IMG/VR virus record: IMGVR_UViG_3300021255_003103
Coordinates: 44,954 to 108,953 of that record
Source: a virus
Taxonomy: Duplodnaviria > Heunggongvirae > Uroviricota > Caudoviricetes
Direction: 5' to 3' (one strand)
Length of the DNA: 64,000 nt
A model generated the notes under the pieces. That model ran no database searches and had not been told where the DNA came from. It saw only the letters and a program-made list of their open reading frames with translations. Of this stretch, positions 18,009 to 57,474 are shown piece by piece (position 1 is the first letter of the stretch; the number at the start of each line of letters is the position of its first letter). The position numbers were made by a program, and so were the translations under genes.

Positions 18009-18371
18009 ATGAGAAATTTGGATTATAGACGTAAGCAAGAAGCAAAGCATTATAAAAAGCGTTTAGAAGTTGCTGTAGCTATACGGCGTTACAAGAAAGT
18101 CAATAATATGATTATGCCAGTGTCAGAAAATAAAAATGATATCCCAGGATATTATCAATGGAGTCATAATAATGTAGATGAAAATAAGATATCATATAAA
18201 CGTTGGAAATATGCATTAAAGAATAATTCAATTAATTCAGATTTGGATCCGTGGATGAAGCGTCATTGTAGGAGAACCAGAAGACATTTTCAGAAAATGG
18301 TTGATTATAAGTTGCCTGATAAGAAATTTCTAGTACGAGCACAAGTAATTTACCCTCGAGATATTGTTTAA
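18009..18371 (+). CDS. Hypothetical basic protein (120 aa)
   Basis: ATG ORF, Lys/Arg-rich. Confidence 0.45.
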   Translation: MRNLDYRRKQEAKHYKKRLEVAVAIRRYKKVNNMIMPVSENKNDIPGYYQWSHNNVDENKISYKRWKYALKNNSINSDLDPWMKRHCRRTRRHFQKMVDYKLPDKKFLVRAQVIYPRDIV

Positions 18372-18396
18372 GGTAGCATAATGCTACCTTTTTTGA
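18371..18396 (+). terminator. Intrinsic terminator (aggtagcat..atgctacct + TTTTTT)
   Basis: Perfect 9-bp stem plus T6. Confidence 0.8.
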
Positions 18397-18641: not shown

Positions 18642-19277
18642 ATGAAAAACTTAAGTAATTATATTTTAGAATCATATAACACTGAAAAATGGAGTGGATA
18701 TAATCCGGCATTTAATTTATTTAGCGAAGATCCTATTGATTCTTTTAATTATAATGATATTATTACATATTTAAAAAATTTTCTTAATAATAATATTTAT
18801 TATGAACAAACATTTATAATAAAAGATAGAAATTTATCTGGATTTTGTGATATAACTGATAAACAAAGTAAAGAATGGTTAGATACTAAAAATGATGATC
18901 ATAAACGTAAATTTTCATTAGAAGATATTTTGAGTGTTAAATTATCAGAAAAAATATTTTTTGGCAAATTTACTCAAACAGGAAAAATAACAAAAAATGT
19001 TTATGGTTATTTAAAAATTGGTAAATCTAATAATGAAGTATTAATATTAAGTTATACAGAAAATAAAGATGAAGCAATTTTATTTGATACTGTTAAAGAT
19101 TTATTAGATGAAATCAAAAAATATAAAGAAGTAAAAATAGAATTACCAAAAGGTTATGCTGCAAGTAAACAAAACTATGCAAATAGTGTTGAATTATATG
19201 CAGATTTTTCTATAATGAATAAAAAATTTAAACCTAAACACGATACATGTGAATTAGGTATATTTATATATAAATGA
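18642..19277 (+). CDS. CTS-like-tagged hypothetical protein (MKNLSNYILES...)
   Basis: N-terminus carries the family tag MK-x-L-x-x-YILES. Confidence 0.55.
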   Translation: MKNLSNYILESYNTEKWSGYNPAFNLFSEDPIDSFNYNDIITYLKNFLNNNIYYEQTFIIKDRNLSGFCDITDKQSKEWLDTKNDDHKRKFSLEDILSVKLSEKIFFGKFTQTGKITKNVYGYLKIGKSNNEVLILSYTENKDEAILFDTVKDLLDEIKKYKEVKIELPKGYAASKQNYANSVELYADFSIMNKKFKPKHDTCELGIFIYK

Positions 19278-19495
19278 TATCATTACAACAATTTTTATTG
19301 GAAAATTATGAAATTTCCAAAATTACATTAACTGAAGAACTTCATGACGTAATTGTTAAAGTTGGAGATTATTGGAGAATAAAAGGTCATGCTGGAAAAG
19401 GAACAAATACACCTAAAAGAGGATATTGGAAAGCAAAATATGAAACAAAAGAAAAGGCTGAAAATGCATTAAAAGCATACTTTGCAAATAAATAA
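19274..19495 (+). CDS. CTS-like-tagged small protein (MISLQQFLLENYE...)
   Basis: Degenerate family tag; overlaps the upstream stop (ATGA). Confidence 0.45.
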   Translation: MISLQQFLLENYEISKITLTEELHDVIVKVGDYWRIKGHAGKGTNTPKRGYWKAKYETKEKAENALKAYFANK

Positions 19496-19507
19496 TATGA
19501 TTTAAAT

Positions 19508-19954
19508 ATGAAGGCATTTAAAGATTATATTTTAGAAGATAAAGTTACAGAATTTAATTATGCTTCTGAAGGAGATCATAATTTTATTGATGAGGTAATT
19601 GAATTATTGGAATCTAATGGATTTAATAAGACTGAAAAAAGGATATTAAAACCAAAAGAATATAAGATAGTAAATAATGGTTATGAATTATTTGTACGTT
19701 CTGAACAGCATAAAACTATAAAGAATACTAAATTAGTATGTATTCGTAAAGGAGATAATGGTAAATATGACTATTATTATAAATTTTCAAATGATTCTTT
19801 TTGGAGATATACATTTTCTAATAAACAACAAATAGTTAGATTTAGAGATTATCAACACGCACAAACAGGTATATTTGATGTAAAAGATTCTAAATGGCAT
19901 GATAGAATATTACAATCAATAAGAGGAATATTTAATATTAAAAAGGATAAATAA
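19508..19954 (+). CDS. CTS-like-tagged hypothetical protein (MKAFKDYILED...)
   Basis: Family tag at the N-terminus. Confidence 0.5.
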   Translation: MKAFKDYILEDKVTEFNYASEGDHNFIDEVIELLESNGFNKTEKRILKPKEYKIVNNGYELFVRSEQHKTIKNTKLVCIRKGDNGKYDYYYKFSNDSFWRYTFSNKQQIVRFRDYQHAQTGIFDVKDSKWHDRILQSIRGIFNIKKDK

Positions 19955-20598
19955 TGAAACCAATAACTGCATATATTTTTGAAAAGATAAAAAATCTTCC
20001 TGAATCTATTAAAGGATTGATTGTATTCGATATTGATGATACAATATTGAGAGTTGATCCTTCATTAATGGGTGTCTATAAGAAAGAACCAGGTAAAGAT
20101 GAAATACGATTAACAACTGATGAATTTGCTAAAGATCCAGATGCAGAAGACGAATCTAAAAAATCATGGTTTGATTATAGGGATTTTAGAGACCCTGTAA
20201 AAGTATATAATTCAATTATTTCAGGAACTCCTCTTATAAAGAATTTGAAGATAATGGATGACTATATTAAAGCTGGATATGATTTTTGCTTTTTGACAGC
20301 TCGTGGTTGTGAAGATACAATCAAGAAGGCTATAGGAGATTTCCTGAAGTTCAGAGATAAAGATGGTGCACTAAAAGAACTGGGTGATTCATTCAAGAAA
20401 ACATTTTCTCATGCTGTAAATGATGAAATAAAGAAATATCCAGGTAAGACAGATGCTGAGAAAAAAGGAAATGTATTGAAAAAACTTTGCAAGAAATATG
20501 ACAGAGTGGTATTTGTTGATGATGACCAGAAAAATGTACGTGCTGCTCGAGGATTAAATATAGATAATCTTAAAGTTATCAAAGCATGGGATGAATAA
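19954..20598 (+). CDS. HAD-superfamily phosphatase, T4 Pnkp 3'-phosphatase-domain-like, with CTS-like tag (MKPITAYIFEK)
   Basis: DxDxT motif in LIVFDIDDTIL, plus FLTARG and VVFVDDDQKNV blocks, align with the T4 polynucleotide kinase/phosphatase C-terminal domain. Confidence 0.6.
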   Translation: MKPITAYIFEKIKNLPESIKGLIVFDIDDTILRVDPSLMGVYKKEPGKDEIRLTTDEFAKDPDAEDESKKSWFDYRDFRDPVKVYNSIISGTPLIKNLKIMDDYIKAGYDFCFLTARGCEDTIKKAIGDFLKFRDKDGALKELGDSFKKTFSHAVNDEIKKYPGKTDAEKKGNVLKKLCKKYDRVVFVDDDQKNVRAARGLNIDNLKVIKAWDE

Positions 20599-20631
20599 TA
20601 TTAAAATTAAAATTTGGGATAAATAAAAATC

Positions 20632-21279
20632 ATGAAAACATTGCAATTATACATAAATGAATCTTTATCTAAAGAAATAATCGAATTGAGAAATAAATTA
20701 AAGAAATTGGATAAATCAAAAATTTTTGATGGAAATTACAATTTAGATGATTCTTTAGATAAAGAATTTTATGAAATATTAACTTCATTAAATAAGCCAA
20801 ATTCATCAAATACTACTTTAATTAATACATGGAGAATGTTATTTTCAAAATTAGTTGTGGAACCATTAGTTGGTGAATTGATTGGTGATAGCAAATGTGA
20901 ATATTCCTCTATTGATATTGACAGAACTGAAAAATGGGACATTAAATATAATGGAAATATATTAATAGATGTAAAAGCAACGTATAATAATCATACACAT
21001 AATTTTGGATTTGCAGAAAAAGATGCTAATTACATTATAAATTACAATAAAAATGACATTAATAAAAGATACACATTATTTGTTTACCCAGAAATAAAGA
21101 CATGGGAAGATGCTACAAAATTATATAAAAACAAATCTGAAGTTAATATGTTATTAATTAGTTTTTCAGATTTTAAGGAAATATTAGATGACAATAATTT
21201 TGAAGTAAAAAAATCAAATATAATGATTCCATATTCTTTTATTAATGAAAATAATAAATTTAGAAAGTTTAAAAAATGA
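20632..21279 (+). CDS. CTS-like-tagged hypothetical protein (MKTLQLYINES...)
   Basis: Family tag at the N-terminus. Confidence 0.5.
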   Translation: MKTLQLYINESLSKEIIELRNKLKKLDKSKIFDGNYNLDDSLDKEFYEILTSLNKPNSSNTTLINTWRMLFSKLVVEPLVGELIGDSKCEYSSIDIDRTEKWDIKYNGNILIDVKATYNNHTHNFGFAEKDANYIINYNKNDINKRYTLFVYPEIKTWEDATKLYKNKSEVNMLLISFSDFKEILDDNNFEVKKSNIMIPYSFINENNKFRKFKK

Positions 21280-21418
21280 AAAACATTGAAGAAATTATAA
21301 GTAAAGAATTACTAGAAATGTTTTCTAAAAATTATTTACAAGAAAGATTTGTAAATAAATATAAAAAAATTAAAAGTCATTAAGGCTTGGTAATAATAAA
21401 TAAAATTTTAAATTAAAT

Positions 21419-21883
21419 ATGTTTAATAAACTTAGAGAAAAAATTGGTAAATTTATATTACCAAACACTGTAAGAGTAGTTGATGCAGCAGATATGACTG
21501 TTGATGAATTAATGAATAATCATGTTCAAAAACTTGAGCAATTGCCTGGTGTATTTACTAAAGATTTTCTTGAAGATTTAATTAAAGAATATCCTAAATT
21601 TGATCATCCAAATATTGTTGAATCTGATGGTAAAATAAAATTTACTGATGCTAATGGAAAGACAGTACAACTTAAAGTTCCTCTTTTAACAATTGTTCCA
21701 ATCCCATATATTTCAAAAGATAGTATTGATTTAGATAAATATTATAAAGAAAATTTTGGGGAATCAAATCCACCAAAGAATATGGAAGATATAAAGGGTG
21801 TACAAGTAAATGTTCCTGCATTGAATATTGTTCCTATACCTTCAATTCCAATTAAAGAAGATAAAAAGAAAGAAAATAAATAA
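21419..21883 (+). CDS. Hypothetical protein with internal duplicated VP(L/A)L(T/N)IVPIP(Y/S)I motif (untagged)
   Basis: ATG ORF; two copies of a Pro/Ile-rich 13-aa motif. Confidence 0.45.
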   Translation: MFNKLREKIGKFILPNTVRVVDAADMTVDELMNNHVQKLEQLPGVFTKDFLEDLIKEYPKFDHPNIVESDGKIKFTDANGKTVQLKVPLLTIVPIPYISKDSIDLDKYYKENFGESNPPKNMEDIKGVQVNVPALNIVPIPSIPIKEDKKKENK

Positions 21884-23061
21884 TGAAACACTTAAGTGAA
21901 TATTTTTTTGAATCATTATCAAAAGAAAGTATCAAAAAATTAGAAGAATATATTTCTGATGATAATATTGACGAATATATTAAATTAATAAAACGTCATG
22001 GTGCATCATTAGGAATAGATAATGATTCATATGATAATTTTTTTGAAATACATGGATTATCAAAATTAAATTGGGGTAGAAATAATTCTGCAAAAAAACA
22101 GTTTGTTAAATTATTTAGTGAAGAAGACCATTTAGATATATTGACATCAATTGTTAAAAACAATGGTGTTTTATCAATAAAAGATGTTGAAGAAAATGGT
22201 AATATATTTAATTTATGTAAAATAGAAGACAATGATTTTTCTGATGAGGCAAAAACAATCGCAACTTGGACAAATTCAACATCAGCAAATGCAGGACCAT
22301 GTGAAATGCTTTTAAAATTTATATTAAAAGAAGGTCGTACATTTAAAAGTGGAGATGTGGGTATTCACGATGGCGAAGATAAAGAAATGGAAGTTAAAGC
22401 TGCAACAACTGGTAAAAATGCAAGTGGTGGTCATGCTGCAGGTCAAAAGGAAAACAATGGTCAAAAAATTAGAGGAGCATGGTCAATATATTTATACTTA
22501 AATAATAATTTATTTAATTTAGGAGATGATAATGCAGCTGCAGATAAATCAGCATATTTTCAAAATGATAACGGTATTAAAAATTTTAATCAATTAATAA
22601 AAGATAATAAATTAGATAAAGATGATCAATCGTTAAAAACATTATCAAATGGTATTGTTGATGCATTATGTTTTCAATATAATTTTATAACAAACGAAAA
22701 GGATTCAAAAAATTCATTAAATACAATTGATAAATTATATGATGCTGCATATGTTTATTGTAAAAGTATTTATGATAATGGATTTAAAAGACAAGATTTA
22801 TTTAATTTAGTTGGTTGCATACAATTATATCTTTATTCACAAGTAGAGAAATTCGATTATTTCTTTTGTGTACAAGTAGATAAATCTGATGAATCAACAA
22901 ATGAAAACAATGGCAATTATTGGTGTGCAAAAAACTGTAAATCACAAGATACAAAGCTATTAAAATTTAATATAGTAACAAATAATTTATATTTTGGACA
23001 ATTAGATAGTCCTACATCTTCACAAGGTCGTACAGGAAAAATTTATATGAAACTTAAATAA
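21883..23061 (+). CDS. CTS-like-tagged hypothetical protein, 392 aa (MKHLSEYFFESLS...)
   Basis: Family tag at the N-terminus; start overlaps the upstream stop. Confidence 0.5.
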   Translation: MKHLSEYFFESLSKESIKKLEEYISDDNIDEYIKLIKRHGASLGIDNDSYDNFFEIHGLSKLNWGRNNSAKKQFVKLFSEEDHLDILTSIVKNNGVLSIKDVEENGNIFNLCKIEDNDFSDEAKTIATWTNSTSANAGPCEMLLKFILKEGRTFKSGDVGIHDGEDKEMEVKAATTGKNASGGHAAGQKENNGQKIRGAWSIYLYLNNNLFNLGDDNAAADKSAYFQNDNGIKNFNQLIKDNKLDKDDQSLKTLSNGIVDALCFQYNFITNEKDSKNSLNTIDKLYDAAYVYCKSIYDNGFKRQDLFNLVGCIQLYLYSQVEKFDYFFCVQVDKSDESTNENNGNYWCAKNCKSQDTKLLKFNIVTNNLYFGQLDSPTSSQGRTGKIYMKLK

Positions 23062-23076
23062 TAAAATTAAAGCTTT

Positions 23077-23814
23077 ATGAAACAAGTAAAAGTTTGTTTA
23101 GGAAGATTTATGCCCTTCACATTAGGACATCTTAAGATGGCAACATATAAAGATCTAAAAGGTCCAGATAAGGAGCAGAAAGATGCTTTAAGAGAACAAC
23201 CAGACTTAAAAGAAATAGCTAAGCAAAAAACTATTATATTGTCTATATTGACTACAAAGGATAAAGTTGACACAAGACACCCATTTGATGCAGATTTGAT
23301 GAAAGATGAATTAGAATTACTTAAGAAAAACTATTCATCTGAAATTGAAGATATTCTATATGTTAAGTCTGCTGATATATGTGCATGGGGTGAAATGCTT
23401 AAAGAAAAAGGATATCAAGCATCAGTTTGGTTAACTGGCTCAGATGAGTTTGCTATGTACAAAGGCATGGCTATTAAGGTGCCAGAATATGAAGAACATA
23501 ATAGAAACAACTATGACTGCAAAGGTGCTTATACGAATTCATTCTATGTGGAAGAGATAGAACGTACAGATGATGGTGATTTTATATCGTCAATTTCTGG
23601 TACAAAAGTTCGTCAAGCTTTATTAAATAATGATAAAGAATTATTTACAAAAATGATGCCAAAGGGAGCTGACAAGTATTTTGATAAATTTAAAGAAGCT
23701 GTTGAAAATGCTCCAGAACCTAAGAAAAAGACATCATCTAATAAAAACAAAAATAATAAAGTTAAAGAAGGATTAACATCACTTAAGAAATATATATTAG
23801 AATCAATAAAATGA
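23077..23814 (+). CDS. Nicotinamide/nicotinate mononucleotide adenylyltransferase-like (cytidylyltransferase fold); C-terminus ends with tag-like ...SLKKYILESIK
   Basis: GRFMPFTLGH matches the (H/T)xGH nucleotidyltransferase motif of NadM/NMNAT (GRFQPFHxGH); a later ISGTKVR block is present. Confidence 0.6.
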   Translation: MKQVKVCLGRFMPFTLGHLKMATYKDLKGPDKEQKDALREQPDLKEIAKQKTIILSILTTKDKVDTRHPFDADLMKDELELLKKNYSSEIEDILYVKSADICAWGEMLKEKGYQASVWLTGSDEFAMYKGMAIKVPEYEEHNRNNYDCKGAYTNSFYVEEIERTDDGDFISSISGTKVRQALLNNDKELFTKMMPKGADKYFDKFKEAVENAPEPKKKTSSNKNKNNKVKEGLTSLKKYILESIK

Positions 23815-24212
23815 AATCATTAAATAATTATATTAATAATGAATATGTTAATGAAGGATTAAAAGATTCTTTCATTAATATTATAAAAAATTTTTTTAGT
23901 CATGGAGAAGTTTCAAATAAAAAATTAGTTACTATTGAAATGGATCCTAAGATATTTGGAAAATTAGTTCGTGATAAAGAATATTTTAAATATACTAATA
24001 AAGAATATCCTAAATTAGTGCCAAATCAAGATTATACTGTTGATGATTTATGGGAATTATATAAATGTGAATTAGGTGAAGATAAATATGGAAATGAAAC
24101 AACTATCTTTACTTATATAGGGCATGCAGATTTTAGAAAGGGCAAAAATGTAATTGAAGTTCAAGAAGAATATAAAGATTTCGTAGAAAAAATTTTTGCA
24201 AAATATAAATAA
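23811..24212 (+). CDS. CTS-like-tagged hypothetical protein (MKSLNNYINNEY...)
   Basis: Family tag; start overlaps the upstream stop (ATGA). Confidence 0.5.
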   Translation: MKSLNNYINNEYVNEGLKDSFINIIKNFFSHGEVSNKKLVTIEMDPKIFGKLVRDKEYFKYTNKEYPKLVPNQDYTVDDLWELYKCELGEDKYGNETTIFTYIGHADFRKGKNVIEVQEEYKDFVEKIFAKYK

Positions 24213-24216
24213 AAAT

Positions 24217-24543
24217 ATGAAAGCAATAAGTCAATATATTAATGAGTCTCAAGATACATATTCATTCACATTAGACGAAACGAAAATGCTATATTTTTCT
24301 GAAGATGAAATTGGAAAAATTATGAAAGATACTTGGGATAAGAATGGAAAATTTTATAAATTATTAAAAGAATTGGATTATAAGCCTGTTAATAATGATA
24401 TAAAAGATTTTTTAGAACAATGTTTAGATGATGATAGAGTAGCTGCACAGTTTGCTTCTTATATTGCAGACATAATTGGTAGAGACAATTTTAGTATTGA
24501 GCAAGTTCAAAAATTTATAAAAACAAATGATATTGTTGTGTAA
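24217..24543 (+). CDS. CTS-like-tagged hypothetical protein (MKAISQYINES...)
   Basis: ORF-track start 24196 is TTG; the first ATG, at 24217, gives the family tag directly. Confidence 0.5.
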   Translation: MKAISQYINESQDTYSFTLDETKMLYFSEDEIGKIMKDTWDKNGKFYKLLKELDYKPVNNDIKDFLEQCLDDDRVAAQFASYIADIIGRDNFSIEQVQKFIKTNDIVV

Positions 24544-25427
24544 TGAAACATCTATTAACATTTATAAAAGAATCACTTGGCATATTTGAAGGTGGTAATG
24601 CAGTTAAAGCGAATCCTATACCTGCGGTTATTGCACCTAAAGTATATGATGAAATATACAAGAAGGTGCAATCTAAATTTAAAATAGACATGATTCCGTT
24701 AGGCAGTATTGGTAAGAAAGCTGATGATAAGACTAATGGAGATATTGATGTCGCAGTTAAAATTGATAGTAAGGACAAACTCAATGAAATAGTTGATACT
24801 TGTTTTAGTGATTGTGAAATCAATTACACAACAATGGGTACTATTACATCATTTGGATATCCTTATGACATAGATGGTTATAAAGGAATTGCTCAAGTTG
24901 ACTTTATGATTGTTAAAGACATTAATTGGGCAAAGTTCAGATATCATTCACCAAATTTTAAAAAGAATGAATCAAAATATAAAGGTGGCGCAAGAAATTG
25001 TATGTTATGCGATGTTGTTGCATGTATACCAGTAGAAGATGCAAAAGACGAGTATTTTGAAGATGGGAAAACGGTTAAGCGTCATTGGAAACATACATTC
25101 AATACAGAAGGAATATTTATACAATTAGTAGATTTTTGTGGTAAGAATGGCAAGCCATTAAAGACTGGTAAAAAGTTAAAAGAATTTGAGAAATTAGTTA
25201 CTAATGATCCAGAAAACTGCATTAAGTTTATATTTGGAGACAACGGTACAATAGATGATGCTAATTCAGCTGAATCAATTTGGAAAGCTATTCATGATCC
25301 AAAGAAATTCAAATGGGGTGATGACATTCTTGCAAAAATTGAAGAAAAAGTGTACAATGATAAATCACTTGAAGAGTTTGGTTTAGATTTAGAAAACGAT
25401 TTCCCAACAAAATTCTATAATAAATAA
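24543..25427 (+). CDS. Pol-beta-superfamily nucleotidyltransferase with CTS-like tag (MKHLLTFIKES...)
   Basis: GSIGKKADDKTNGDIDVAV matches the GS-x(9-13)-D-h-D-h minimal NTase motif. Confidence 0.5.
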   Translation: MKHLLTFIKESLGIFEGGNAVKANPIPAVIAPKVYDEIYKKVQSKFKIDMIPLGSIGKKADDKTNGDIDVAVKIDSKDKLNEIVDTCFSDCEINYTTMGTITSFGYPYDIDGYKGIAQVDFMIVKDINWAKFRYHSPNFKKNESKYKGGARNCMLCDVVACIPVEDAKDEYFEDGKTVKRHWKHTFNTEGIFIQLVDFCGKNGKPLKTGKKLKEFEKLVTNDPENCIKFIFGDNGTIDDANSAESIWKAIHDPKKFKWGDDILAKIEEKVYNDKSLEEFGLDLENDFPTKFYNK

Positions 25428-25428
25428 T

Positions 25429-26550
25429 ATGAATCATTTAATAGATAAGTACTTAAAAAAACCCGAATATGTAAAAGAACTTTTTAATAAAGAAGTATCA
25501 ATATCATTAAAGGTTGATGGTGCTGCATTTCAAATATCTTATGATAAAGATCAAGACAAGATAACATATCATAAACGTGGTGGTAGTTCAAAAAGTCTTG
25601 GTCCAATTATTGATGAATACACTCAATTAATGAGAAAGAATGTAAATGATGCAATTGAATATTTTGATAATAAAAAAGATATATTAAAGCAATATAAATT
25701 CTATGCTATTGAAATGTTTAATGATTCATATATTTTATTAACTGTAATTGATAATGATAATAATATTATAGATAATGTTTCAAAACTTAAAGAAATTTCA
25801 AAATCATTGAATATTGATTGTGTTCCTATTTTATTTGATGGTAAATTAAATAAAGAACAAATAGATTCTTTATTAGAAATGATGTCATTAGATCCTGAAA
25901 CAAATAATGATACATATAAAGAATATTTAACAAATATTTTTGGTAAAGGTGAATATCAGAAATTTTTAAATGGAGATGAGGTAGAAGGAATTGTACTTAC
26001 ATGGAATACTGATAAGATTGAACAATATAAGATAATAAATCCAGCATTTAAGACTAGACATGATAAAGAAATTAAACAAGGTAATGAAGAGTTCCAGAAA
26101 GAAATGGAAGAACTTCGTGAACTATTTGAGTTCTTTTATGAAAGTCTTAATAAGTATGGAAAATATTATGGTGATAATTGGATTAAGACATTAAATGATA
26201 ATTTTATAATGATGAATGAACAATCTGATTTTCAACGCAAATTAAAAGAATTTAATAATTCTATTAAGCCAAAATTCAAAGATTTCTTTACATTACAATC
26301 AAATAAAATCGATAAAAGAATACAAAAGTTAATTGATGAATATGGAGATAACATGAAATTTTATTATGAAAAATATTTATCATTATTTAATAAACAAAAG
26401 AAACGTAATTTTACAATTTCAAAAGAATTTCAAATGAAAGTCAATGATTTGATTGAAAAATTACAATCAAAAAATGAATCATTAAAATTATATACAAAAT
26501 ATCATATAAAAGCATTAAATAATTATATATTAGAATCAAAATATAAATAA
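25429..26550 (+). CDS. ATP-dependent polynucleotide ligase (Rnl2/DNA-ligase-type nucleotidyltransferase; KxDG motif I); C-terminus ends with tag-like ...KALNNYILESKYK
   Basis: EVSISLKVDGAAFQI aligns with the T4 Rnl2 motif I region (EWVAREKIHGTNFSL). Size is 373 aa. Confidence 0.55.
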   Translation: MNHLIDKYLKKPEYVKELFNKEVSISLKVDGAAFQISYDKDQDKITYHKRGGSSKSLGPIIDEYTQLMRKNVNDAIEYFDNKKDILKQYKFYAIEMFNDSYILLTVIDNDNNIIDNVSKLKEISKSLNIDCVPILFDGKLNKEQIDSLLEMMSLDPETNNDTYKEYLTNIFGKGEYQKFLNGDEVEGIVLTWNTDKIEQYKIINPAFKTRHDKEIKQGNEEFQKEMEELRELFEFFYESLNKYGKYYGDNWIKTLNDNFIMMNEQSDFQRKLKEFNNSIKPKFKDFFTLQSNKIDKRIQKLIDEYGDNMKFYYEKYLSLFNKQKKRNFTISKEFQMKVNDLIEKLQSKNESLKLYTKYHIKALNNYILESKYK

Positions 26551-26555
26551 TTATA

Positions 26556-27062
26556 ATGAAAAATATTATTAAATTTATCTTAGAAAAATTATTACCATTT
26601 AATGTTTGGATAATGGTTGGATTACCAGGTTCAGGTAAGTCAACATATATTAAAGAAGAACTTCCAAAGAATATTGAAATTATAAACCAAGATTCAATTA
26701 GAGTTGAACTTGGTATAATGAAAGATGATGAGCATAAAGCAATTGGAAATTCCGAACAAGAAAAAGAAGTTGCAAGAATTTGTTTAGAACGAATTGATAA
26801 AGCAATTAAAGATAAAAGAGATTTTGTTATTGATAATACAAATATTAAAGCAGGAAGAGTACAAAATTATTATGATAAGTTAAAGAAAGCTAATGCTAAT
26901 GTTCAAATAATCATTATTGATACTCCTAAAGAAATTTGCAAAGATCGTCGTAAAGAACATATACCAGAAAAGGTTATTGATGATATGCAATTAGGTCTTG
27001 ATAAAGTAAAGGATAAATTTAAGAATAATAAAGATACAATAATAGTTACAAATAGATATTAA
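26556..27062 (+). CDS. Polynucleotide 5'-kinase (T4 Pnkp kinase-domain-like) with CTS-like tag (MKNIIKFILEK)
   Basis: Walker A GLPGSGKST; IINQDSIR (cf. T4 INRDDYRQ); FVIDNTNIKAGRV (cf. VIISDTNLNPERR). Confidence 0.7.
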   Translation: MKNIIKFILEKLLPFNVWIMVGLPGSGKSTYIKEELPKNIEIINQDSIRVELGIMKDDEHKAIGNSEQEKEVARICLERIDKAIKDKRDFVIDNTNIKAGRVQNYYDKLKKANANVQIIIIDTPKEICKDRRKEHIPEKVIDDMQLGLDKVKDKFKNNKDTIIVTNRY

Positions 27063-27095
27063 ATAATTATTTTTAATAAATAAATAAATTATAAT

Positions 27096-27473
27096 ATGAA
27101 ATCAATAAGTAAATATATTTTAGAGTCAAAAAATAATAAAGAGTTAGTTAATTTTATTCATAAATTTGGATCAAAAGATGAGCAAAAATTTGATAAATTT
27201 ATTAATAATTTAGATATTAATAATGATGCTATAAATTTATTAAAAAAGAATTTTAATAATGATTCAGAATTTTATTATATAAATAGTGAATATTCAGATT
27301 CAGATTCATTTCAAGATAAATTACAAGATTTAATCGATGAAATTGAAGATAATGGAGAATTAATTGATGAATGGGATAATGAAGAAACATATATAAAAAT
27401 ATATAATCATTCTGATTTTGGAAAATTAATTTATATTGATATGTATGTACAAATAATTTTAATAGAAAAATAA
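27096..27473 (+). CDS. CTS-like-tagged acidic hypothetical protein (MKSISKYILES...)
   Basis: Family tag at the N-terminus. Confidence 0.5.
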   Translation: MKSISKYILESKNNKELVNFIHKFGSKDEQKFDKFINNLDINNDAINLLKKNFNNDSEFYYINSEYSDSDSFQDKLQDLIDEIEDNGELIDEWDNEETYIKIYNHSDFGKLIYIDMYVQIILIEK

Positions 27474-27580: not shown

Positions 27581-27892
27581 ATGAACAAGACAACTGCACG
27601 TTATTTCAATTTAAATGAGTTTAAGGCTGGTAAGAACGCTACTACTAAGCTTGGTAACCCCGTAAAGTTTATTACTATTACAGCCGACGGTAAGTTGCTC
27701 GTAAAGGTTAATCACCGCAGTAAGATTTCAGGTTTTTCAAATAAGGTTATTGTTCCGATGTTTGAAGGTACTGTTGAAAAATATAATATGGATGGTAGCA
27801 AGTACCGCGGAACTGAGACGGAGTTCGACTTGGTAATGGAAGCTCCAAAGCGTCCACGAAATGAAAAGGGACAGTTTGTAAAGATGGGTTAA
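27581..27892 (+). CDS. Hypothetical 103-aa protein with markedly elevated GC and atypical codon usage (possible recent acquisition)
   Basis: Codons such as ccgcag, ccgcgg, gacggag and ctcgta are rare elsewhere in the window; the gene is bracketed by two terminators. Confidence 0.5.
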   Translation: MNKTTARYFNLNEFKAGKNATTKLGNPVKFITITADGKLLVKVNHRSKISGFSNKVIVPMFEGTVEKYNMDGSKYRGTETEFDLVMEAPKRPRNEKGQFVKMG

Positions 27893-27908
27893 AACCCATC
27901 TTCTTTTA
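27882..27908 (+). terminator. Intrinsic terminator (agatgggtt-aaa-acccatct + TCTTTTATT) overlapping the stop codon
   Basis: 9-bp stem; the TAA stop is in the loop. Confidence 0.7.
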
Positions 27909-33162: not shown

Positions 33163-34146
33163 ATGGAATTAAATGACGAATATATAATTAAATTATGTTT
33201 TCAAAAAAATTGTGGTCGATTAATTAGAAATTTTAGTTTTGATAAATTAGATAATAATGTTAAAGATTACATAATAAATAGATATAACGATTCATTATCA
33301 ATTGAAGAAACACTAAAAAGAATATATTATAAAATTGAATTTCATCCAAAATGTCCTATATGTGGAAAATTAGTATCTTGGGGTAAATGCGGAAATAATA
33401 AATTTTTTCATAATACATGCAGTTTAAAATGCGCTGGAAAATTAAGTTTGCAAACAATTAAAAAAAAATATGGTTATAGTAATCCAATGGATTTTCCAAA
33501 CGCAAAACAAAATTTAGAAAATACATGTTTAAAAAAATATGGAGTTAAACATGTATTACAAAATAAAGATATAAAGAAAAAACAAGAGCAAACATGTATT
33601 AAAAGATTTGGTACAAATAATATTTTTTCATCCGAAATTGGAAAACAAAAAATAAAAGAATCATTAATAAAACATTTTGGTGTAGATCATCAAATGAAAT
33701 CTCAAGAAATAAAAAATAAATTTAATTGGAAACAATCAGTAGAAAAACAAATTGAAACAAAAAGAAAAAATAATTCTTTTCATATTTCAAAACCAGAGGA
33801 AGAATCTTATATATTATTAAATAATAAATTTAATGATGTAAAAAGACAATACAAATCAAAAAGTTATCCTTATTGTTGTGATTTTTATATTCCAAGTTTA
33901 GACCTATATATTGAATGTAATTATCATTGGACACATGGCGGTCATCCATATAATGAAAACGACATTAATGATATAAATAAAGTAAAAGAATTAAAATCTA
34001 AAAATAAAAAATTTTATAATAATGTTATAATAACATGGACAGTAAGAGATGTTAATAAAAGAAACATAGCCAAAGAAAATAATTTAAATTATTTAGAATT
34101 TTGGAGCATTAATGAATTAAAAAAATGGATAAATATATATAAATAA
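33163..34146 (+). CDS. Zn-ribbon + repeat + Vsr/DUF559-like (PD-(D/E)XK) endonuclease-domain protein; paralog of the N-terminal part of 48997..50763(-)
   Basis: CPICGK...C..C zinc ribbon; tandem (K)KYG(V/Y)-containing ~27-aa repeats; C-terminal CDFYIPSLDLYIECNYHWTHGGHPYNEN ... NVIITWTVRDV fits the DUF559 pattern (DF...l.iE.dG..H ... w.v.R). About 330 aa are strongly similar to the other copy. Confidence 0.5.
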   Translation: MELNDEYIIKLCFQKNCGRLIRNFSFDKLDNNVKDYIINRYNDSLSIEETLKRIYYKIEFHPKCPICGKLVSWGKCGNNKFFHNTCSLKCAGKLSLQTIKKKYGYSNPMDFPNAKQNLENTCLKKYGVKHVLQNKDIKKKQEQTCIKRFGTNNIFSSEIGKQKIKESLIKHFGVDHQMKSQEIKNKFNWKQSVEKQIETKRKNNSFHISKPEEESYILLNNKFNDVKRQYKSKSYPYCCDFYIPSLDLYIECNYHWTHGGHPYNENDINDINKVKELKSKNKKFYNNVIITWTVRDVNKRNIAKENNLNYLEFWSINELKKWINIYK

Positions 34147-45277: not shown

Positions 45278-47014
45278 ATGACAAATAAACGTTGCTTGGT
45301 TTATGAGACTTTAGGAAGCGTTTCAAATCTTCAAGTGTCAGAAGCTAAAGGCGATGGTTTAATGCGTTTGCAAGGTGTATTTGGTGTTTGCGGTGTAAAG
45401 AATCAAAATAATCGTGTATATGACAAAGATAATTATGCACAGATGGTTGAATCTTTACAAAAAAAGATTAAAGAATCTGGTTGTCCAGGAGAATTGGAAC
45501 ATCCTAATTCAATGAACATAAATCTTGAAAATGTATCTCACAAAATTGAAGATATTCAGATGAATGAAGATGGTACAATTACAGGTTCAATTGTTCTTTT
45601 AAATACTCCTAAAGGTCAAATTGCAAAAGCTATCGTTGAAGGCGGTCTTCCACTTTTTATTTCGTCACGTGGTGCTGGTACAATTACTAATGAAGGTCGT
45701 GTAACATTATCTACAATACAGACATATGATTTAGTAGGTACTCCAGGATTTAGTCAAGCTAAGCTCACATTATCAAATAATCAAAAACTTGAATGTTTGA
45801 ATGAAGGTCTAGAAGATAATAATGAAACTTGGGTTATTGTTGAAGGTGATGATCTTTTAGGAGATGAAGATAATAAAGATGATAATAAAGATCCTAAAGA
45901 TAATAAAGATTCAAAAACCAATAAAGATAATGATCCAAAAAATGGTGACAAACCTAAAGATGACGATAACAAAAATAATGACGATAAAGACATCAATATG
46001 AAAGAACTTAAAGAAGCTATTGATAAGCTTACTGAGAAAGTAACATCTCTCGAAGCTGAACTTCATGTAGCTCAAGAATCTTTAAACGAAACACAAAATG
46101 AAGTAAAGTCATTTAAGCCAACAAATTATGACGGTATTCAAAAGTGGGTTGTTGAACAATTTGCTCCAGAGTTCCAAAAAAAAATCAATGAAAGCTTAAA
46201 TACTTTAATAAGTGAAAAGTTTAATGATGATTCTTCAGAAGATATGCAAGAATCTATTAAATCTTGGGTTGTTGAAGAATTTGCTCCATTAGTACAAGGT
46301 TGGATTACTGAAGAATTTTCACCAGAAATTCAAAATTGGATTACTGAAGAATACTCACCAGAAATTCAAAAATGGATTGTTGAAGAATACTCACCAGAAA
46401 TTCAAAAATGGATTGTTGAAGAATACTCACCAGAAATTCAAGGTTGGATTACTGAAGAATACTCACCAGAAATTCAAAATTGGATTACTGAAGAATACTC
46501 ACCAGAAATTCAAGGTTGGATTACTGAAGAATTTGCTCCTACCGTTGAAAATTGGTTAATGGAAGAATATACTCCTGAACAATCATTAATTATTGAAAAG
46601 AAAGTAAATGAAAATGTATCTGCATTTATGGAATCACAAAAAGCAGGTCGTCTTGATGAAATTGACGGTTTACTTGAATCTATTGCTGCTGAAGGAAACA
46701 ATGATGTTCAAAAAATTGTTAAAGAGCAACAAGAGGAAAATAAGTATAAAGGAATATATGTAGTAGAAAATATGCCAGCTGAATATCTTCCATCTTGGAA
46801 TATGCTTAATGAAGCTGCACAACAATTAATTATTAGAAGTTCAAAAATGTATGACTTTACTAAAGAAGGCGTACTTGAATCATTCTGGGCTAATGTAGAT
46901 TTTGGTAAGAATGCTGAAGAAACAAAGCCAGTTGTAGAATCAAAGAATCCTATTCAAAATTATCAAAATAATATTATAGCTAACATGAAGAGACTTCGTG
47001 GTTTGAACTACTAA
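45278..47014 (+). CDS. Prohead protease (T4 gp21-like) fused to an acidic repeat-containing scaffold-like C-terminal region
   Basis: The N-terminal ~180 aa (LQGVFGVCGVKNQNNRVYDKDNY...GELEHP...SSRGAGT) aligns with T4 gp21 (GIFMQAEVVNRNKRLYPKRIL...). Downstream is a poly-acidic KD/ND-rich linker, a coiled-coil segment, and 7-8 tandem 14-aa repeats WI(T/V)EE(Y/F)SPEIQ(N/K/G). Confidence 0.6.
   Translation: MTNKRCLVYETLGSVSNLQVSEAKGDGLMRLQGVFGVCGVKNQNNRVYDKDNYAQMVESLQKKIKESGCPGELEHPNSMNINLENVSHKIEDIQMNEDGTITGSIVLLNTPKGQIAKAIVEGGLPLFISSRGAGTITNEGRVTLSTIQTYDLVGTPGFSQAKLTLSNNQKLECLNEGLEDNNETWVIVEGDDLLGDEDNKDDNKDPKDNKDSKTNKDNDPKNGDKPKDDDNKNNDDKDINMKELKEAIDKLTEKVTSLEAELHVAQESLNETQNEVKSFKPTNYDGIQKWVVEQFAPEFQKKINESLNTLISEKFNDDSSEDMQESIKSWVVEEFAPLVQGWITEEFSPEIQNWITEEYSPEIQKWIVEEYSPEIQKWIVEEYSPEIQGWITEEYSPEIQNWITEEYSPEIQGWITEEFAPTVENWLMEEYTPEQSLIIEKKVNENVSAFMESQKAGRLDEIDGLLESIAAEGNNDVQKIVKEQQEENKYKGIYVVENMPAEYLPSWNMLNEAAQQLIIRSSKMYDFTKEGVLESFWANVDFGKNAEETKPVVESKNPIQNYQNNIIANMKRLRGLNY
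46262..46586 (+). repeat. 42-nt (14-codon) in-frame tandem repeats (x7-8) inside the protease/scaffold gene
   Basis: The repeated peptide WITEEYSPEIQNW is visible in the translation; the same stretch yields a repetitive alternative-frame artefact ORF (46377..46559). Confidence 0.8.
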
Positions 47015-47112: not shown

Positions 47113-48882
47113 ATGTTTAATGAACAAAATGGCGCAGTTACATGGGAAAAAATGTTGAAGGAAAACTTTAACGTTAATGACCAGGAAAAACTTAACTGGG
47201 TTTCTCAATATGCTGCAATTCATGAAATTCATGAATCACAATTAGGTATTAATACTGGTAATGTAGTTCCATCTACAGCTCATCCAGGTGTTAGCCCTAT
47301 TTATGCAACTCCAATGAATACTCTTGGCATTGGTAATCCAACAGCTCCTAGCCAATTAGATCCAATGAGTACAGCACCTTATAATGCTGCTAATCCAACA
47401 GGTTCATTCTGGGGTCAAACTCCAGGTTCAGGTGATATTCCAGTATCAACACTTCCAATGGCTCTTAACATTGCATTGTTAACTATTGGTCTTGAACTTG
47501 TTCCAGTTATTCCTTCTAAAGGTCCTTGGGCTATGTTAACATATATGGACTTCCCATATGCTGGTGGTAAGCTCGGTCGTGTAAACGAAACATCATTTGA
47601 TGGTAAGGGTGAAGGTAATGAAAACAAGCCTATCTACATTAAGATTAAAGGTCTTACACTTACTCAAATTGCTGGTATTCGTGGAGCAATGGAAGCTGGT
47701 GATGTAAAAGCTGATTCTGTTGTTGAAGTTGGTGGTTTCAAAGGTAAGTTTATCATGCTTGGTCGTATGGATGCTTGCCCACTTGTTAAAGTTGTAGAAT
47801 GCTCTGCTGCTAATAAATCAATTCGTGAAGAATTTGGTGCTGCTACAACAGTTAAGATTGGTACTCACACAATTACATTAGAAGCTGCTTCTGAAGGTAA
47901 GGCTGCACAAGCTGTTGAAGCTGATTTCGTTCAAACTTCAGTTGATTTAGTTGATGGTTTTGCTAACTTCTTTGATGGTAGTAAGAATCCTATGACACGT
48001 GCTCAAAACGAAACTGGTACAGGTAATGTAATTGGTCTTCGTTTATTCAGCAAGTGGATCCAAATGGGTTCATACGAAGTAACTGGTACTGTTACACGTC
48101 AACAACTTCAAGATCTTCCTCTTTATGGTGTTGACGCAGTATCTAAAGTTATGGAAGCTCTCCAAAACGAAATTACACAACACATCAACCAACGTATTCT
48201 TGAAAGAGTATTTGCACTTGGTGTTACTAACGCTGTACAGCAAAAGGCTCGTCAAGGTGTAGATCTTAACCTTTATATGGGTAACGGTGGCGCTGATATT
48301 CCATTTGCTACTGCATTCCCAGGTGTTCCACACTTCACAGATATCTATGGACATGATCATAAAGCTGATTGGGGTAACGTAAAGAATGCTGAAGTTAATA
48401 CTTCTGCTGAAAATCTTGCAACACGTCAACGTCGTATTATGTCTAAGTTACTTGCTGCTGCTAACTTAATCCAATTAGTAGGTCGTCGTGGTCGTCCAAC
48501 ATGGGTTGTAACAAACGGACAAGTTGCTACTGCACTTCAAGATGTTTCAGGTTATGTTGTAGCTCCAATGCTTAACACAATGTCTCAAGCTAATACACAA
48601 AACTTATACCATGCAGGTACAGTTGCTGGTCTTCAAATCTATGTTGATCCATATATGGACTGGAATGATACACGTATCTGTATTGGCCGTAAGGGTGATG
48701 GTAATTCACCAGGTGTTATCTTTATGCCTTATATCCTTGCTGATACAGTTTCTATTACTGCAGAAGGTACAATGGCTCCAAAGATGCTTGTTAACTCAAG
48801 ATATACTATTGCAGAAGCTGGCTTCTATCCAGAACTCCAATATCTCACAATCGCAGTTGGTTCAGCATTTGGAATTATCTAA
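47113..48882 (+). CDS. Major capsid protein, T4 gp23-like
   Basis: Blockwise similarity to T4 gp23: ALNIALLTIGLELVPVIPSKGPWAML vs AIPNLIAFDICGVQPMNSPTGQVFAL; PTWVVTNGQVATALQDVSG vs GNFIIASRNVVNVLASVDTG; LQIYVDPYMDWNDTRICIGRKG vs YRVYIDQYAKQDYFTVGYKG. ORF-track start 47098 is TTG; ATG is at 47113. Gene order protease-scaffold then MCP is as in T4. Confidence 0.7.
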   Translation: MFNEQNGAVTWEKMLKENFNVNDQEKLNWVSQYAAIHEIHESQLGINTGNVVPSTAHPGVSPIYATPMNTLGIGNPTAPSQLDPMSTAPYNAANPTGSFWGQTPGSGDIPVSTLPMALNIALLTIGLELVPVIPSKGPWAMLTYMDFPYAGGKLGRVNETSFDGKGEGNENKPIYIKIKGLTLTQIAGIRGAMEAGDVKADSVVEVGGFKGKFIMLGRMDACPLVKVVECSAANKSIREEFGAATTVKIGTHTITLEAASEGKAAQAVEADFVQTSVDLVDGFANFFDGSKNPMTRAQNETGTGNVIGLRLFSKWIQMGSYEVTGTVTRQQLQDLPLYGVDAVSKVMEALQNEITQHINQRILERVFALGVTNAVQQKARQGVDLNLYMGNGGADIPFATAFPGVPHFTDIYGHDHKADWGNVKNAEVNTSAENLATRQRRIMSKLLAAANLIQLVGRRGRPTWVVTNGQVATALQDVSGYVVAPMLNTMSQANTQNLYHAGTVAGLQIYVDPYMDWNDTRICIGRKGDGNSPGVIFMPYILADTVSITAEGTMAPKMLVNSRYTIAEAGFYPELQYLTIAVGSAFGII

Positions 48883-56032: not shown

Positions 56033-56208
56033 ATGACTATATTTTTAGTTGGTAGTTGTAGTTTTACAGCGGCAAATTTAGATCCTAAAAGATTAAATAG
56101 TCAAATACAAGAATGTGGATGGTTAATCAATATGGTTGAAGGTATAGGCAAATGGAAAAATCATCCATGTAATTTTATGTACAAAGATCATATTGATTGG
56201 GTGAACTA
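56033..56208 (+). pseudogene. Putative 5' fragment of a gene interrupted by the IS200/IS605 element (MTIFLVGSCSFTAANLDPKRLNSQIQECGW...KDHIDW...)
   Basis: 58-codon ATG ORF ending a few nt inside the IS end. The same frame reopens, with no start codon, exactly at the other IS boundary (58022). Confidence 0.35.
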
Positions 56209-57474
56209 ACACAACGCTAAAGACGTTGTATCTTCCTGCTCAGCAAATTTACTTATAAATTTATTATAAGAAATTTTTACAGGCCCTTTTATACTTGTAT
56301 GATTAGTTCCTAACCTATCAAGTTTATCATATATAAGATAGAAATATATCATGTTATTTGCTGCATGTATGTCTCTATCTTCTTTTGTTTTACATTTAGG
56401 ACATTCAAATATTCTATCTTTTAATTCTAATTCAACTTTAGATCCACATTTATTACAATATTTTGTCGTTGGAAACCATTTGTCTAGTATAACTGTTCTA
56501 TCGCACATACTTAATTTGTACTTTATTCTACCTAATATAGAATGCTGTATTTTAGATCCACTCATTCCATCTTGTCTCCATTCACTTATTTGCTCATCTT
56601 GTATTACTATTGTTTTATTATCATTTAAAATTGAATGAACTATTTTATTTGATATGTCATTTTTCTTGTTATTTATATGGATATACTCTTTTCTGATTTT
56701 CTTAATAGTCTTATATCTGTTGTTTGAGCCTTTTATTTGTTTACTAAGCTTAGCTTGTAATCTTTTAAGTTTCTCACTTTCTTCAATAGATATGTCATAT
56801 TTGATGCCATCAGATAAAGTCAAACTTGTAGACACACCCATATCTATGCCTACTATGTTATTTTTATATTGTTTATTTTTATCTTTATTTATATAACAAG
56901 TTAAACTAATATAATAATCATTTCCATCATATAATAGTTTTGCATTTGCATAATCTATGTTATCGTATTTGTTTAATTGCTTAATCCCGTTAACACGAAT
57001 AAGTTTTTTTATTCCTTGTATTTTAAACTTATTTCCTCTTATGCTATGCGTATTATTATATTGTTTTAATTCAATACAATTAAATTCTGATTTATATTTT
57101 AATTTGCCAACATCATATCCTTTTTTCTTTAATGCAGATAAACCTTTTATTTGGTTTACAATTTGTTTTATTATTCCTTGTTTTAATGCTGAACTAATAT
57201 AAGATATATTTACTTGTATATCATTTCCATACTTATCTTTATGCGTTATTGTGTTTAAATCTTTATAGTCAAAATTAAATACATCTTTATCTAAAAGATA
57301 ATTATATATCCACTTAGCCTCAACAAACTGCATTTTTATCTGTTCGTTTTGCTGTTTAGATAAACTAGATTTATCAACTTTAAACTTAAAGCACTTGCAT
57401 ATCTGAGACTTACGTTTATCATAAGTCTCTCTCATAGTCTGTGCTATATGTTTATTTTTTTCTAATCTATCCAT
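56206..57474 (-). CDS. tnpB: TnpB (IS605 OrfB-family RNA-guided nuclease-like; RuvC-like + Zn ribbon)
   Basis: C-terminal CNKCGSKVE...CPKCKTKEDRDIHAANNM (Zn ribbon plus RuvC-III DxxAAxN) and the central GIDMGVS (RuvC-I). Divergent from tnpA. Confidence 0.75.
   Translation of the reverse strand: MDRLEKNKHIAQTMRETYDKRKSQICKCFKFKVDKSSLSKQQNEQIKMQFVEAKWIYNYLLDKDVFNFDYKDLNTITHKDKYGNDIQVNISYISSALKQGIIKQIVNQIKGLSALKKKGYDVGKLKYKSEFNCIELKQYNNTHSIRGNKFKIQGIKKLIRVNGIKQLNKYDNIDYANAKLLYDGNDYYISLTCYINKDKNKQYKNNIVGIDMGVSTSLTLSDGIKYDISIEESEKLKRLQAKLSKQIKGSNNRYKTIKKIRKEYIHINNKKNDISNKIVHSILNDNKTIVIQDEQISEWRQDGMSGSKIQHSILGRIKYKLSMCDRTVILDKWFPTTKYCNKCGSKVELELKDRIFECPKCKTKEDRDIHAANNMIYFYLIYDKLDRLGTNHTSIKGPVKISYNKFISKFAEQEDTTSLALC

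Follow-up and report, generated by a model that had tools for sequence, protein, structure and literature searches.

Candidate C-terminal and internal copies of a T4-like capsid-targeting tag on enzymes of an uncultured phage

The internal proteins IPI–III and Alt of bacteriophage T4 carry a capsid-targeting sequence (CTS), MKTYQEFIAE, whose 10 residues are removed by a single cleavage. Residues 4 and 7 matter most for targeting and residues 8 and 10 for processing, and gp21 cuts after L/I-x-E (PMC9026906). Here we examine a 64,000-nucleotide stretch of a tailed phage (the window; positions 44,954 to 108,953 of IMG/VR record IMGVR_UViG_3300021255_003103, Caudoviricetes) in which 11 genes of one cluster start with a comparable motif, called the tag below, and in which further copies of this motif lie in frame at the 3' ends of two enzyme genes, one encoding an NMNAT-like nucleotidyltransferase and the other an RNA ligase. 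We read these copies as functional targeting tags, C-terminal or internal, that would be cut after Glu10 by a gp21-type protease and would double as recombination handles; we put the probability of this reading at roughly 0.55.

The shared N-terminal motif spans 10–11 residues, M-K-x-[LI]-x-x-[YF]-[IL]-x-E-[SK], and by analogy its first 10 positions are most likely the counterpart of the T4 CTS in this group of phages. Both are leaders of 10 residues that begin at Met1, with a hydrophobic residue at position 4, an aromatic one at position 7, Ile or Leu at position 8 and Glu at position 10. Both sit on diverse and fast-changing cargo, and genes for a gp21-family protease and for a gp23-family capsid protein are present in both genomes, here within the window. 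As expected of a CTS, unrelated cargo shares one tag in variable loci: about 98 of 450 unique open reading frames (ORFs) in related loci carry it, and the neighbours vary between close relatives. The two systems differ, however, in several respects. The sequence here is MKSLNNYILE rather than MKTYQEFIAE, and its function is a predicted one. The T4 cargo consists of small basic proteins, whereas whole enzymes (RNA ligase, nucleotidyltransferases, PNK kinase/phosphatase) are tagged here. Finally, the tag of this phage also stands at the C terminus or in mid-protein, in frame, behind a disordered linker.

Other described systems resemble the locus in part. Encapsulin cargo-loading peptides are short, usually lie behind a flexible linker at the C terminus of an enzyme and direct it into an HK97-fold shell, and the cargo may also be fused. 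The NMNAT-like tail has the same anatomy, its short helix being joined to the fold by a disordered linker, but the sequence family and the shell are different, the encapsulin peptides are not removed by proteolysis and no DNA is packaged; we claim no membership in that group. In the giant phages phiKZ, 201phi2-1 and SPN3US, the propeptides of ejection or inner-body proteins are cut by gp21-like proteases after S/A/G-x-E. Points of likeness are the large size, the many packaged proteins, a gp21-related protease cutting after Glu and the conserved N termini of paralogues, which have been proposed to be CTS-like. In contrast to the tag, the propeptides of giant phages are mostly longer than 100 residues and N-terminal, and neither a short universal tag nor in-frame exchange of cassettes has been described for them.

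The CTS and the shuffling of cassettes at T4 internal-protein (IP) loci are already known, and a 1994 study by Repoila et al., as far as papers that cite it convey, reportedly described polymorphism of the IP locus in T4-like phages. In T4-like hyperplastic regions, as in our locus, short conserved sequences beside cassettes are crossover points at which close relatives differ by insertion, deletion and exchange. There, promoter-terminator motifs named PeSL form an intergenic, regulatory handle (Arbiol/Comeau/Krisch, PMC4122927), whereas the handle here is coding, so that exchange is in frame and can create or resolve fusions. In a limited literature search, we found no account of in-frame C-terminal or internal CTS copies, of enzyme–tag–cassette fusions, or of such a tagged enzyme cluster in large uncultured phages.

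Anatomy of the two C-terminal copies

As had been read from the sequence originally, the NMNAT-like ORF (23077–23814) ends ...KVKEGLTSLKKYILESIK*, that is, in LTSLKKYILE, SIK and a TGA stop; this stop shares the sequence ATGA (23811–23814) with the following ATG, where a gene beginning MKSLNNYINNE starts. The ligase ORF (25429–26550) likewise ends ...YHIKALNNYILESKYK*, in IKALNNYILE followed by SKYK, and after a 5-nt gap (TTATA) the gene at 26556 begins MKNIIKFILEK. The tag copies occupy residues 233–242 of 245 in the former protein and residues 360–369 of 373 in the latter. The label NMNAT, also part of the original prediction, stands at the level of the fold only: the best PDB matches of the AlphaFold2 (AF2) model, built with a 37-sequence alignment, are NaMN/NMN adenylyltransferases, PPAT, TmcAL and FAD synthetase (TM-scores of about 0.4–0.66), but Pfam gives just a sub-threshold match to HIGH_NTase1_ass and PHROGs assign the protein as a cytidyltransferase.

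In the AF2 predictions, both tails are appendages beyond the enzyme folds and not part of the catalytic fold. The tail helices of both enzymes are predicted with confidence values (pLDDT) of 53–76; in the ligase there are two such low-confidence helices past the fold, at residues 350–359 and 363–372. A place for the NMNAT-like tail within the enzyme fold was considered and ruled out on three grounds: the linker has low pLDDT; tagless homologues, which lack the linker, end earlier (...IINI*); and distant homologues align to residues 2–214 only. The length of the linker differs among homologues. Tagless homologues of the ligase likewise stop short of the tail, at ...ISKEFQxxINxIIxKI*. The original prediction had named, as the finding that would speak against it, that the extensions are conserved parts of the enzyme folds; the extension is indeed conserved together with the enzyme, but as an appendage outside the fold.

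At the level of the peptide, both copies score as tags. Against a matrix derived from 98 of the group's N-terminal tags, the NMNAT-like and ligase copies reach 19.6 and 18.6 bits, respectively, compared with a median of 19.5 for real N-terminal tags and 13.9 for the best of 84,872 background positions in shuffled proteins. LTSLKKYILE and IKALNNYILE fit the T4-type pattern in their length of about 10 residues, at positions 4 and 7, and at positions 8 and 10 ([LI]-x-E). In an alignment of NMNAT-like homologues made without reference to the motif, positions 4, 7, 8 and 10 are kept in 27 of the 30 that bear a tail. In our per-position tag tables, the tags had been chosen by a pattern that fixes these four positions, and only the remaining positions are informative. 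The T4-type location at Met1 is found in the 11 neighbouring genes (gene starts being taken as the first ATG of every ORF) and in neither of the two C-terminal copies, which are internal in relatives.

At the level of DNA, the picture is different from that first proposed, namely two occurrences of a motif per junction, some 40 nt apart at most. The exact 15-mer TATATATTAGAATCA is present only at 23791 and 26524; at up to two mismatches it has nine matches versus 2.6 expected (0 of 100 shuffles reach nine), and each junction has only one of these. When the C-terminal copy and the adjoining N-terminal tag are aligned in register, 18 of 36 nt agree at the NMNAT-like junction and 22 of 36 nt at the ligase junction, and the longest exact runs, of 5 and 6 nt, are no better than those between unrelated pairs of tags. 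The duplication at the window's junctions is confined to the peptide motif.

Persistence of the tag in relatives

Relatives of the window are numerous in metagenomes, on contigs of up to 460 kb, and were found by alignment-based scans; a scan of IMG/VR with the ligase alone gave no match. Searches of the deposited phage genomes in INPHARED with blastn and tblastn yielded no useful relative, and the clade is absent from those records. The matches there were limited to LR756500.1, at 26% identity, and to Prevotella Lak megaphages, with about 95 bp at ~74% identity; the latter segment (window 24890–24987, within the "EGGNAVK" nucleotidyltransferase gene) is the sole DNA-level likeness to deposited phages. 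The homologues compared below are not phylogenetically independent of one another.

The tail of the NMNAT-like enzyme is widespread and stable. Among 51 homologues, 41 have an in-frame tag, which is terminal in 25 and fused to a further module in 16, and 10 have no recognizable tag. The terminal tags, kept in homologues that are 54–94% identical, are followed by 3–12 residues, mostly as ...ILES[IL][KQ]* with the ATGA overlap. In most loci, this ending of two further codons and ATGA persists, and at least five different genes are found behind it. Related genomes do carry other cargo at these junctions, a comparison that the original prediction had called for: the downstream gene differs behind the NMNAT-like tail and likewise behind that of the ligase (L074).

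Several observations bear on whether the peptide is selected. First, in a codon comparison of six genes, the tag core SLKxYILES shows amino acid differences of 0.037 versus 0.168 in the enzyme body, and synonymous differences of 0.231 versus 0.312. The low amino acid change combined with near-normal synonymous change points to selection on the peptide and not to identity of the DNA. Second, the window has a G+C content of 27%, and with that base composition about 8.5% of random codons are computed to be stops, so that an unselected tail of 34 codons would seldom be open. Third, the C-terminal copies retain L4, Y7, I8 and E10, whereas M1 and K2 are relaxed: M1 is found in 1 of 11 terminal ligase tags versus 76% of fused ones, and K2 in 31% of terminal NMNAT-like tags versus 84% of N-terminal tags. 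Truncations, moreover, almost never remove the tag itself.

A fourth observation concerns the distribution of tags over adjacent genes. The recognizable enzymes of the cluster that lack an N-terminal tag are exactly the two that have a C-terminal one. In nine loci with a tagged NMNAT-like enzyme (the window, L001, L005, L009–L012, L016 and L079), the adjoining nucleotidyltransferase is N-tagged; in another six, whose NMNAT-like enzyme has no tag (L075–L078, L081 and L082), the adjoining nucleotidyltransferases lack N-terminal tags as well and start MGGFVFK..., MSGNAIK..., MNTTVLTGGHS... or MSGSIGANRIL.... Other tagged genes remain in the larger of these loci (L075–L077). An intolerance of the enzymes' N termini toward a tag was considered as the reason for the C-terminal position, but this carries little weight, since nothing of a CTS stays on the protein once it is cleaved, and historical capture of a downstream tag is simpler.

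In deeper clades, the C-terminal copy changes along with the N-terminal tags around it. Homologues that are 33–36% identical (L030–L034) end ...CSLxxY[IV]xN..FDI[DEN]* beside genes starting M[IQ]xLxxY[VI]. Marine homologues at 25–29% identity end [LM]-T-[FY]-[DE]-x-F-[IL]-[KN]-K-I*, and their neighbours start MKxIKTFExF or MKHIKLFEQFINE, very near KTYQEFIAE of T4. The core motif occurs at 102 N termini of the marine loci versus 9.9 expected and at 53 C termini versus 11 expected, the latter including a second family, MPAQSKAQQRLMG.... That the C-terminal copy tracks its clade's own N-terminal tag implies either the same clade-specific partner or continued exchange of sequence.

The marine loci (L035–L064 and L085–L126) also encode a protein of ~615 residues that ends in a HIGH-nucleotidyltransferase domain, an acidic linker and LTFEQFIKNI*. 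Their "EGG" nucleotidyltransferase is N-tagged, and many of their genes begin with the same T4-CTS-like start, MKHIKLFEQFINE.

Cassette exchange and competing explanations

The proposal that the tag-coding sequence is a handle for homologous recombination was borne out by three lines of evidence: a pair of related arrangements, the variety of cassettes fused to the ligase, and the truncated cassette at the end of the window's ligase. In L011, the NMNAT-like ORF is fused via one tag to a "QNENQKEL" cassette, which is followed by a second tag and an "APNKIS" cassette, and the two tags are identical over 30 nt. In P0014, a 95.5%-identical enzyme is fused straight to the "APNKIS" cassette (96% identical), the arrangement that recombination of one tag with the other would produce. 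The 16 fused NMNAT-like homologues have at least 10 different modules past the tag. Of 42 ligases at least 52% identical to that of the window, only P0087 and P0106 are clearly without a tag; basal clades of the ligase lack it. The ligase tag is terminal or leads into a fused module, of which at least seven different ones occur, and sister lineages differ in the partner. Terminal ligase tags have heterogeneous short tails that resemble truncated versions of different cassettes. Modules found in fusions also occur free, with N-terminal tags of their own (window gene 24217, L001:1532, L001:2222 and L005:13893). Assembly chimeras are an unlikely source of the fusions, as several fused forms stand for many sequences or contigs (47 members for P0080, 76 for P0100).

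Three further arrangements belong here. The 108-residue "QDKYF...NFSxEQVxKF" module, which is free in the window (24217–24543), is fused via the tag to the ligase (L001:8948–10306; P0078, P0079, P0086, P0092, P0096 and P0100), to the NMNAT-like enzyme (L009:5894–6814) and to a third enzyme (L006:3766–4992); so promiscuous a pattern of fusion suggests that the module works with these enzymes. P0004 has two intact tags in tandem, in frame. In L076 (8001–9366), from a tagless lineage, the ligase ends ...IENIKYAKSK*, and the next ORF overlaps it in another frame, starting MLRVNKDIKF...; this ORF is the "EKLIINKDTK" cassette without its tag, and it looks as if a deletion had removed the tag and broken a former fusion.

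The window's ligase tail, ...ILES-KYK* (TCA AAA TAT AAA TAA), aligns with ...ITES-KYKSSN* of L074/P0067, whose ligase is 95% identical, and with the full ...ES-NYKSSNLEDLKKQ cassette (NYKSSNLEDL), which is fused in L010, P0080 and P0088 and free at L001:2222. L074 is truncated at another point, and the gene downstream is not that of the window. Judged from these alignments, the window's tail is a recent, truncated remnant of a fused NYKSSNLEDL cassette in which the tag was retained. The preceding ligase extension, ...NESLKLYTKYH (26467–26505), resembles a decayed tag (SLKLYT versus SLKKYI) and may be an older, degenerate copy, a trace of an earlier capture of a cassette.

It is this history that gives weight to the view that the C-terminal copies are neutral recombination scars, undecayed leftovers of cassette turnover that are in frame by accident. 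A truncated NYKSSNLEDL cassette in the window, a ligase cut elsewhere and facing another neighbour in L074, heterogeneous short ligase tails, documented recombination from tag to tag and the existence of tagless lineages are all what such a view would lead one to expect, and homology to a cassette is indeed found at the ligase. The NMNAT-like tail, in contrast, contains only the tag and does not evolve like a neutral feature of one junction, so that the original idea of a junction-specific scar failed for this enzyme: the tag is kept before at least five downstream genes, with less amino acid change than the enzyme body shows; where it is missing, adjacent genes have lost their N-terminal tags too; and it has clade-specific versions in homologues at 25–36% identity. 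The improbably open tail of 34 codons, the sparing of the tag by truncations and the decay of M1 and K2 while positions 4, 7, 8 and 10 stay also go against neutrality. Scarring thus fits the window's ligase tail and not the NMNAT-like tail, and as an account of both we consider it unlikely. Under the targeting reading, the NMNAT-like tail would be the stable, selected version of what the ligase tail represents as a recent, truncated fusion.

A different alternative grants that the peptide is functional but assigns it a role away from the capsid, as a handle for a common partner, an RNA-repair complex or some other localization, which the C-terminal copies would serve equally. Selection, co-variation and independence of position are silent on the receptor, and many of the tagged proteins are of RNA-repair type and could act jointly (HAD/PNK phosphatase, PNK kinase, RNA ligase and nucleotidyltransferases). 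However, the motif has the length of the T4 CTS, likewise starts at Met1 and agrees with it at the four mapped residues, among them those of the I-x-E protease site; the window also contains genes for a gp21-type protease and a gp23-type capsid protein, and the cluster lies within a block of virion genes; and the range of cargo is very diverse, as among T4 internal proteins. These considerations make a non-capsid role improbable in our estimation.

Least credible by far is that the copies are cis-acting nucleic acid signals at the junctions (for translational coupling or re-initiation, as a promoter or as an RNA structure), with the peptide incidental: in the window, both copies do precede the next start by no more than 45 nt and share an identical core 15-mer, and the ATGA overlap is almost always kept at the NMNAT-like junction, but such a copy is missing upstream of most other junctions in the cluster, 50–220 codons separate the tag from the following start in fused relatives, it is the amino acids that are conserved, with synonymous variation, N-terminal tags sit downstream of starts, sigma-70-like sites show no enrichment (75 versus 90 expected), Rfam gave no match, and a promoter/terminator scan of 18–28 kb was blank at the junctions. 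The translational coupling once suggested for the junction tag is among the roles that these data disfavour.

The targeting reading itself faces several difficulties. Anatomy, conservation, the pattern of selection, the fusions, one case of recombination, the co-loss of tags and the genes for protease and capsid protein are observed; we infer capsid targeting, cleavage after Glu10, function at the C terminus and delivery of enzymes into the host, and the presence of tagged proteins in the virion, their cleavage and their targeting rest on analogy. The T4 literature that we covered places the CTS at the N terminus only; for Alt and gp21, processing at the C terminus has been described there, but no targeting from it. 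The window's ligase tail, as a remnant of truncation, may not be old enough for selection to be visible. The codon test is small (six related genes, nine codons) and can hardly be enlarged because a scan of JGI metagenomes gave just four more close relatives. The co-loss of tags may represent just one or two events in non-independent homologues, and the co-variation of C- and N-terminal tags could stem from gene conversion or recombination, with no shared receptor. Some lineages lack the tag on both enzymes, which makes it dispensable. Finally, one gene inside the cluster (21419–21883, 154 residues, MFNKLREKIGKFILPNTVRVVD...; relatives at L011:3287, L016:2653 and L076:4935) has no tag at either end.

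If the tag is nevertheless a CTS, the following mechanism can be envisaged. The tag would dock a protein to the prohead core. In the two enzymes, which have no leader, the reading frame runs, free of stops, through the disordered linker into a tag copy, and this copy is either the beginning of the tagged cassette downstream, as in the enzyme–tag–cassette fusions, or, as in the window, a tag with 2–13 further residues and a stop. The in-frame copy would give the enzyme a targeting peptide at its C terminus. Cleavage after Glu10 by the gp21-type protease would then leave the enzyme ending ...YILE and set the downstream module free in the mature form that it normally has; loss of that module would produce the pattern of a tag, a few residues and a stop. 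Every cassette starts with the same ~30 nt, and recombination at tags can therefore swap, delete and fuse cassettes in frame.

A broader and more tentative proposal, which we hold to be possible but somewhat short of an even chance, is that the tag is a position-independent, T4-like capsid-targeting peptide with which large uncultured phages of gut or rumen and marine origin load whole enzymes, among them an RNA-repair-type set (ligase, PNK kinase and phosphatase, nucleotidyltransferases), into the head via N-terminal, internal or C-terminal copies, their "polyproteins" being resolved by the prohead protease and the injected repertoire being exchangeable in frame. Were this true, the T4 targeting sequence would reach well beyond the T-even phages as a general, position-independent address label, and a simple sequence rule would predict packaged and injected proteins straight from metagenomes. 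Phages would deliver ready-made RNA-repair-type enzymes together with their DNA, plausibly, although this is speculation, against host defences that cleave RNA. A handle within coding sequence would also offer a concrete route to in-frame exchange, fusion and fission of cassettes and would explain the rapid turnover of injected proteins. The natural design of fold, flexible linker and C-terminal tag could serve as a template for loading cargo that needs a free N terminus.

The tagged cluster and its surroundings

Most genes of the cluster carry the tag at their start. The 11 N-tagged genes begin at 18642, 19274, 19508, 19954, 20632, 21883, 23811, 24217, 24543, 26556 and 27096, and one additional tagged gene lies outside the cluster, at 6285 (coordinates of the main features are collected in Table 1). 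The cluster is flanked by virion genes, of which the upstream ones are head-closure-like or lysin-like and the downstream ones encode sheath, protease and capsid proteins. A position within a block of virion genes, in one orientation, is what late co-expression with head assembly would lead one to expect. Terminator-like G+C-rich hairpins with T-runs flank the cluster at 18370–18390 and 27881–27902, and none is found within it, which would fit a single transcription unit.

Table 1. Features of the tagged cluster and of the head genes in the window (positions in window coordinates)
Feature	Position	Strand	Remarks
Whole tagged-gene cluster	18642..27473	+	Tight; 11 genes with N-terminal motif
HAD/PNK-type phosphatase	19954	+	From domain search; N-tagged
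Predicted catalytic body of HIGH-motif nucleotidyltransferase ("NMNAT-like"), residues 1–211	23077..23709	+	AF2 pLDDT mostly >90; final fold helix 198–211
Lys-rich low-complexity linker ENAPEPKKKTSSNKNKNNKVKEG	23710..23772	+	pLDDT <50 at residues 219–231; no secondary structure predicted at 212–235
C-terminal tag copy LTSLKKYILE (tag positions 1–10) + SIK + TGA	23773..23814	+	19.6 bits; predicted short helix 236–244
Downstream cassette, 133 aa, N-tag MKSLNNYINNE	23811..24212	+	Other gene here in relatives
Free "QDKYF/QDTY" cassette, 108 aa, N-tag MKAISQYINE	24217..24543	+	Fused in frame via tag in relatives
Nucleotidyltransferase-like enzyme ("EGGNAVK" family), N-tag MKHLLTFIKE	24543..25427	+	No Pfam match
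RNA ligase body, residues 1–346	25429..26466	+	Pfam PF09414 RNA_ligase, E = 7.5e-7; last helix of AF2 fold 332–346
Ligase extension QSKNESLKLYTKYH	26467..26505	+	Low-confidence helix 350–359; only in tag-bearing ligase clade
C-terminal tag copy IKALNNYILE + SKYK + TAA	26506..26550	+	18.6 bits
PNK-type kinase (AAA_33), N-tag MKNIIKFILE	26556..27062	+	5 nt past ligase stop
T4 gp21-type prohead protease	45278..47014	+	PHROG 207 head maturation protease, E = 5e-44; Pfam PF03420 Peptidase_S77, E = 7e-12, exceeds curated cut-off
gp23-type major capsid protein	47113..48882	+	Pfam PF07068 Gp23, E = 1.7e-27; PHROG 28442 and 138

The tagged cargo between 19954 and 27062 resembles a complete RNA-repair-type toolkit, comprising a HAD/PNK phosphatase, an RNA ligase, a PNK-type kinase and two kinds of nucleotidyltransferase. 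If the tag does mean packaging, these enzymes would enter the host with the DNA.

Long ORFs of structural type run uninterrupted through the window under the standard code. A recoded stop at the end of the NMNAT-like gene, whose TGA lies inside the ATGA overlap, was considered and ruled out, structural ORFs of 2215, 1748 and 1047 residues being intact in that code.

Signs of mobile elements were seen in the window and in related loci. Two transposase-like genes (56206–57474 and 61378–62601, minus strand; PHROG 506, E ~1e-46 each) stand within 6 kb, beside a helicase gene. An ORF of the DUF7487 / homing-endonuclease-like type lies amid structural genes at 33163–34146, and a homologue is found directly upstream of the NMNAT-like gene in L005 (8941–10008) and in L006. 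The positions of these ORFs suggest that a mobile element also remodels the cluster.

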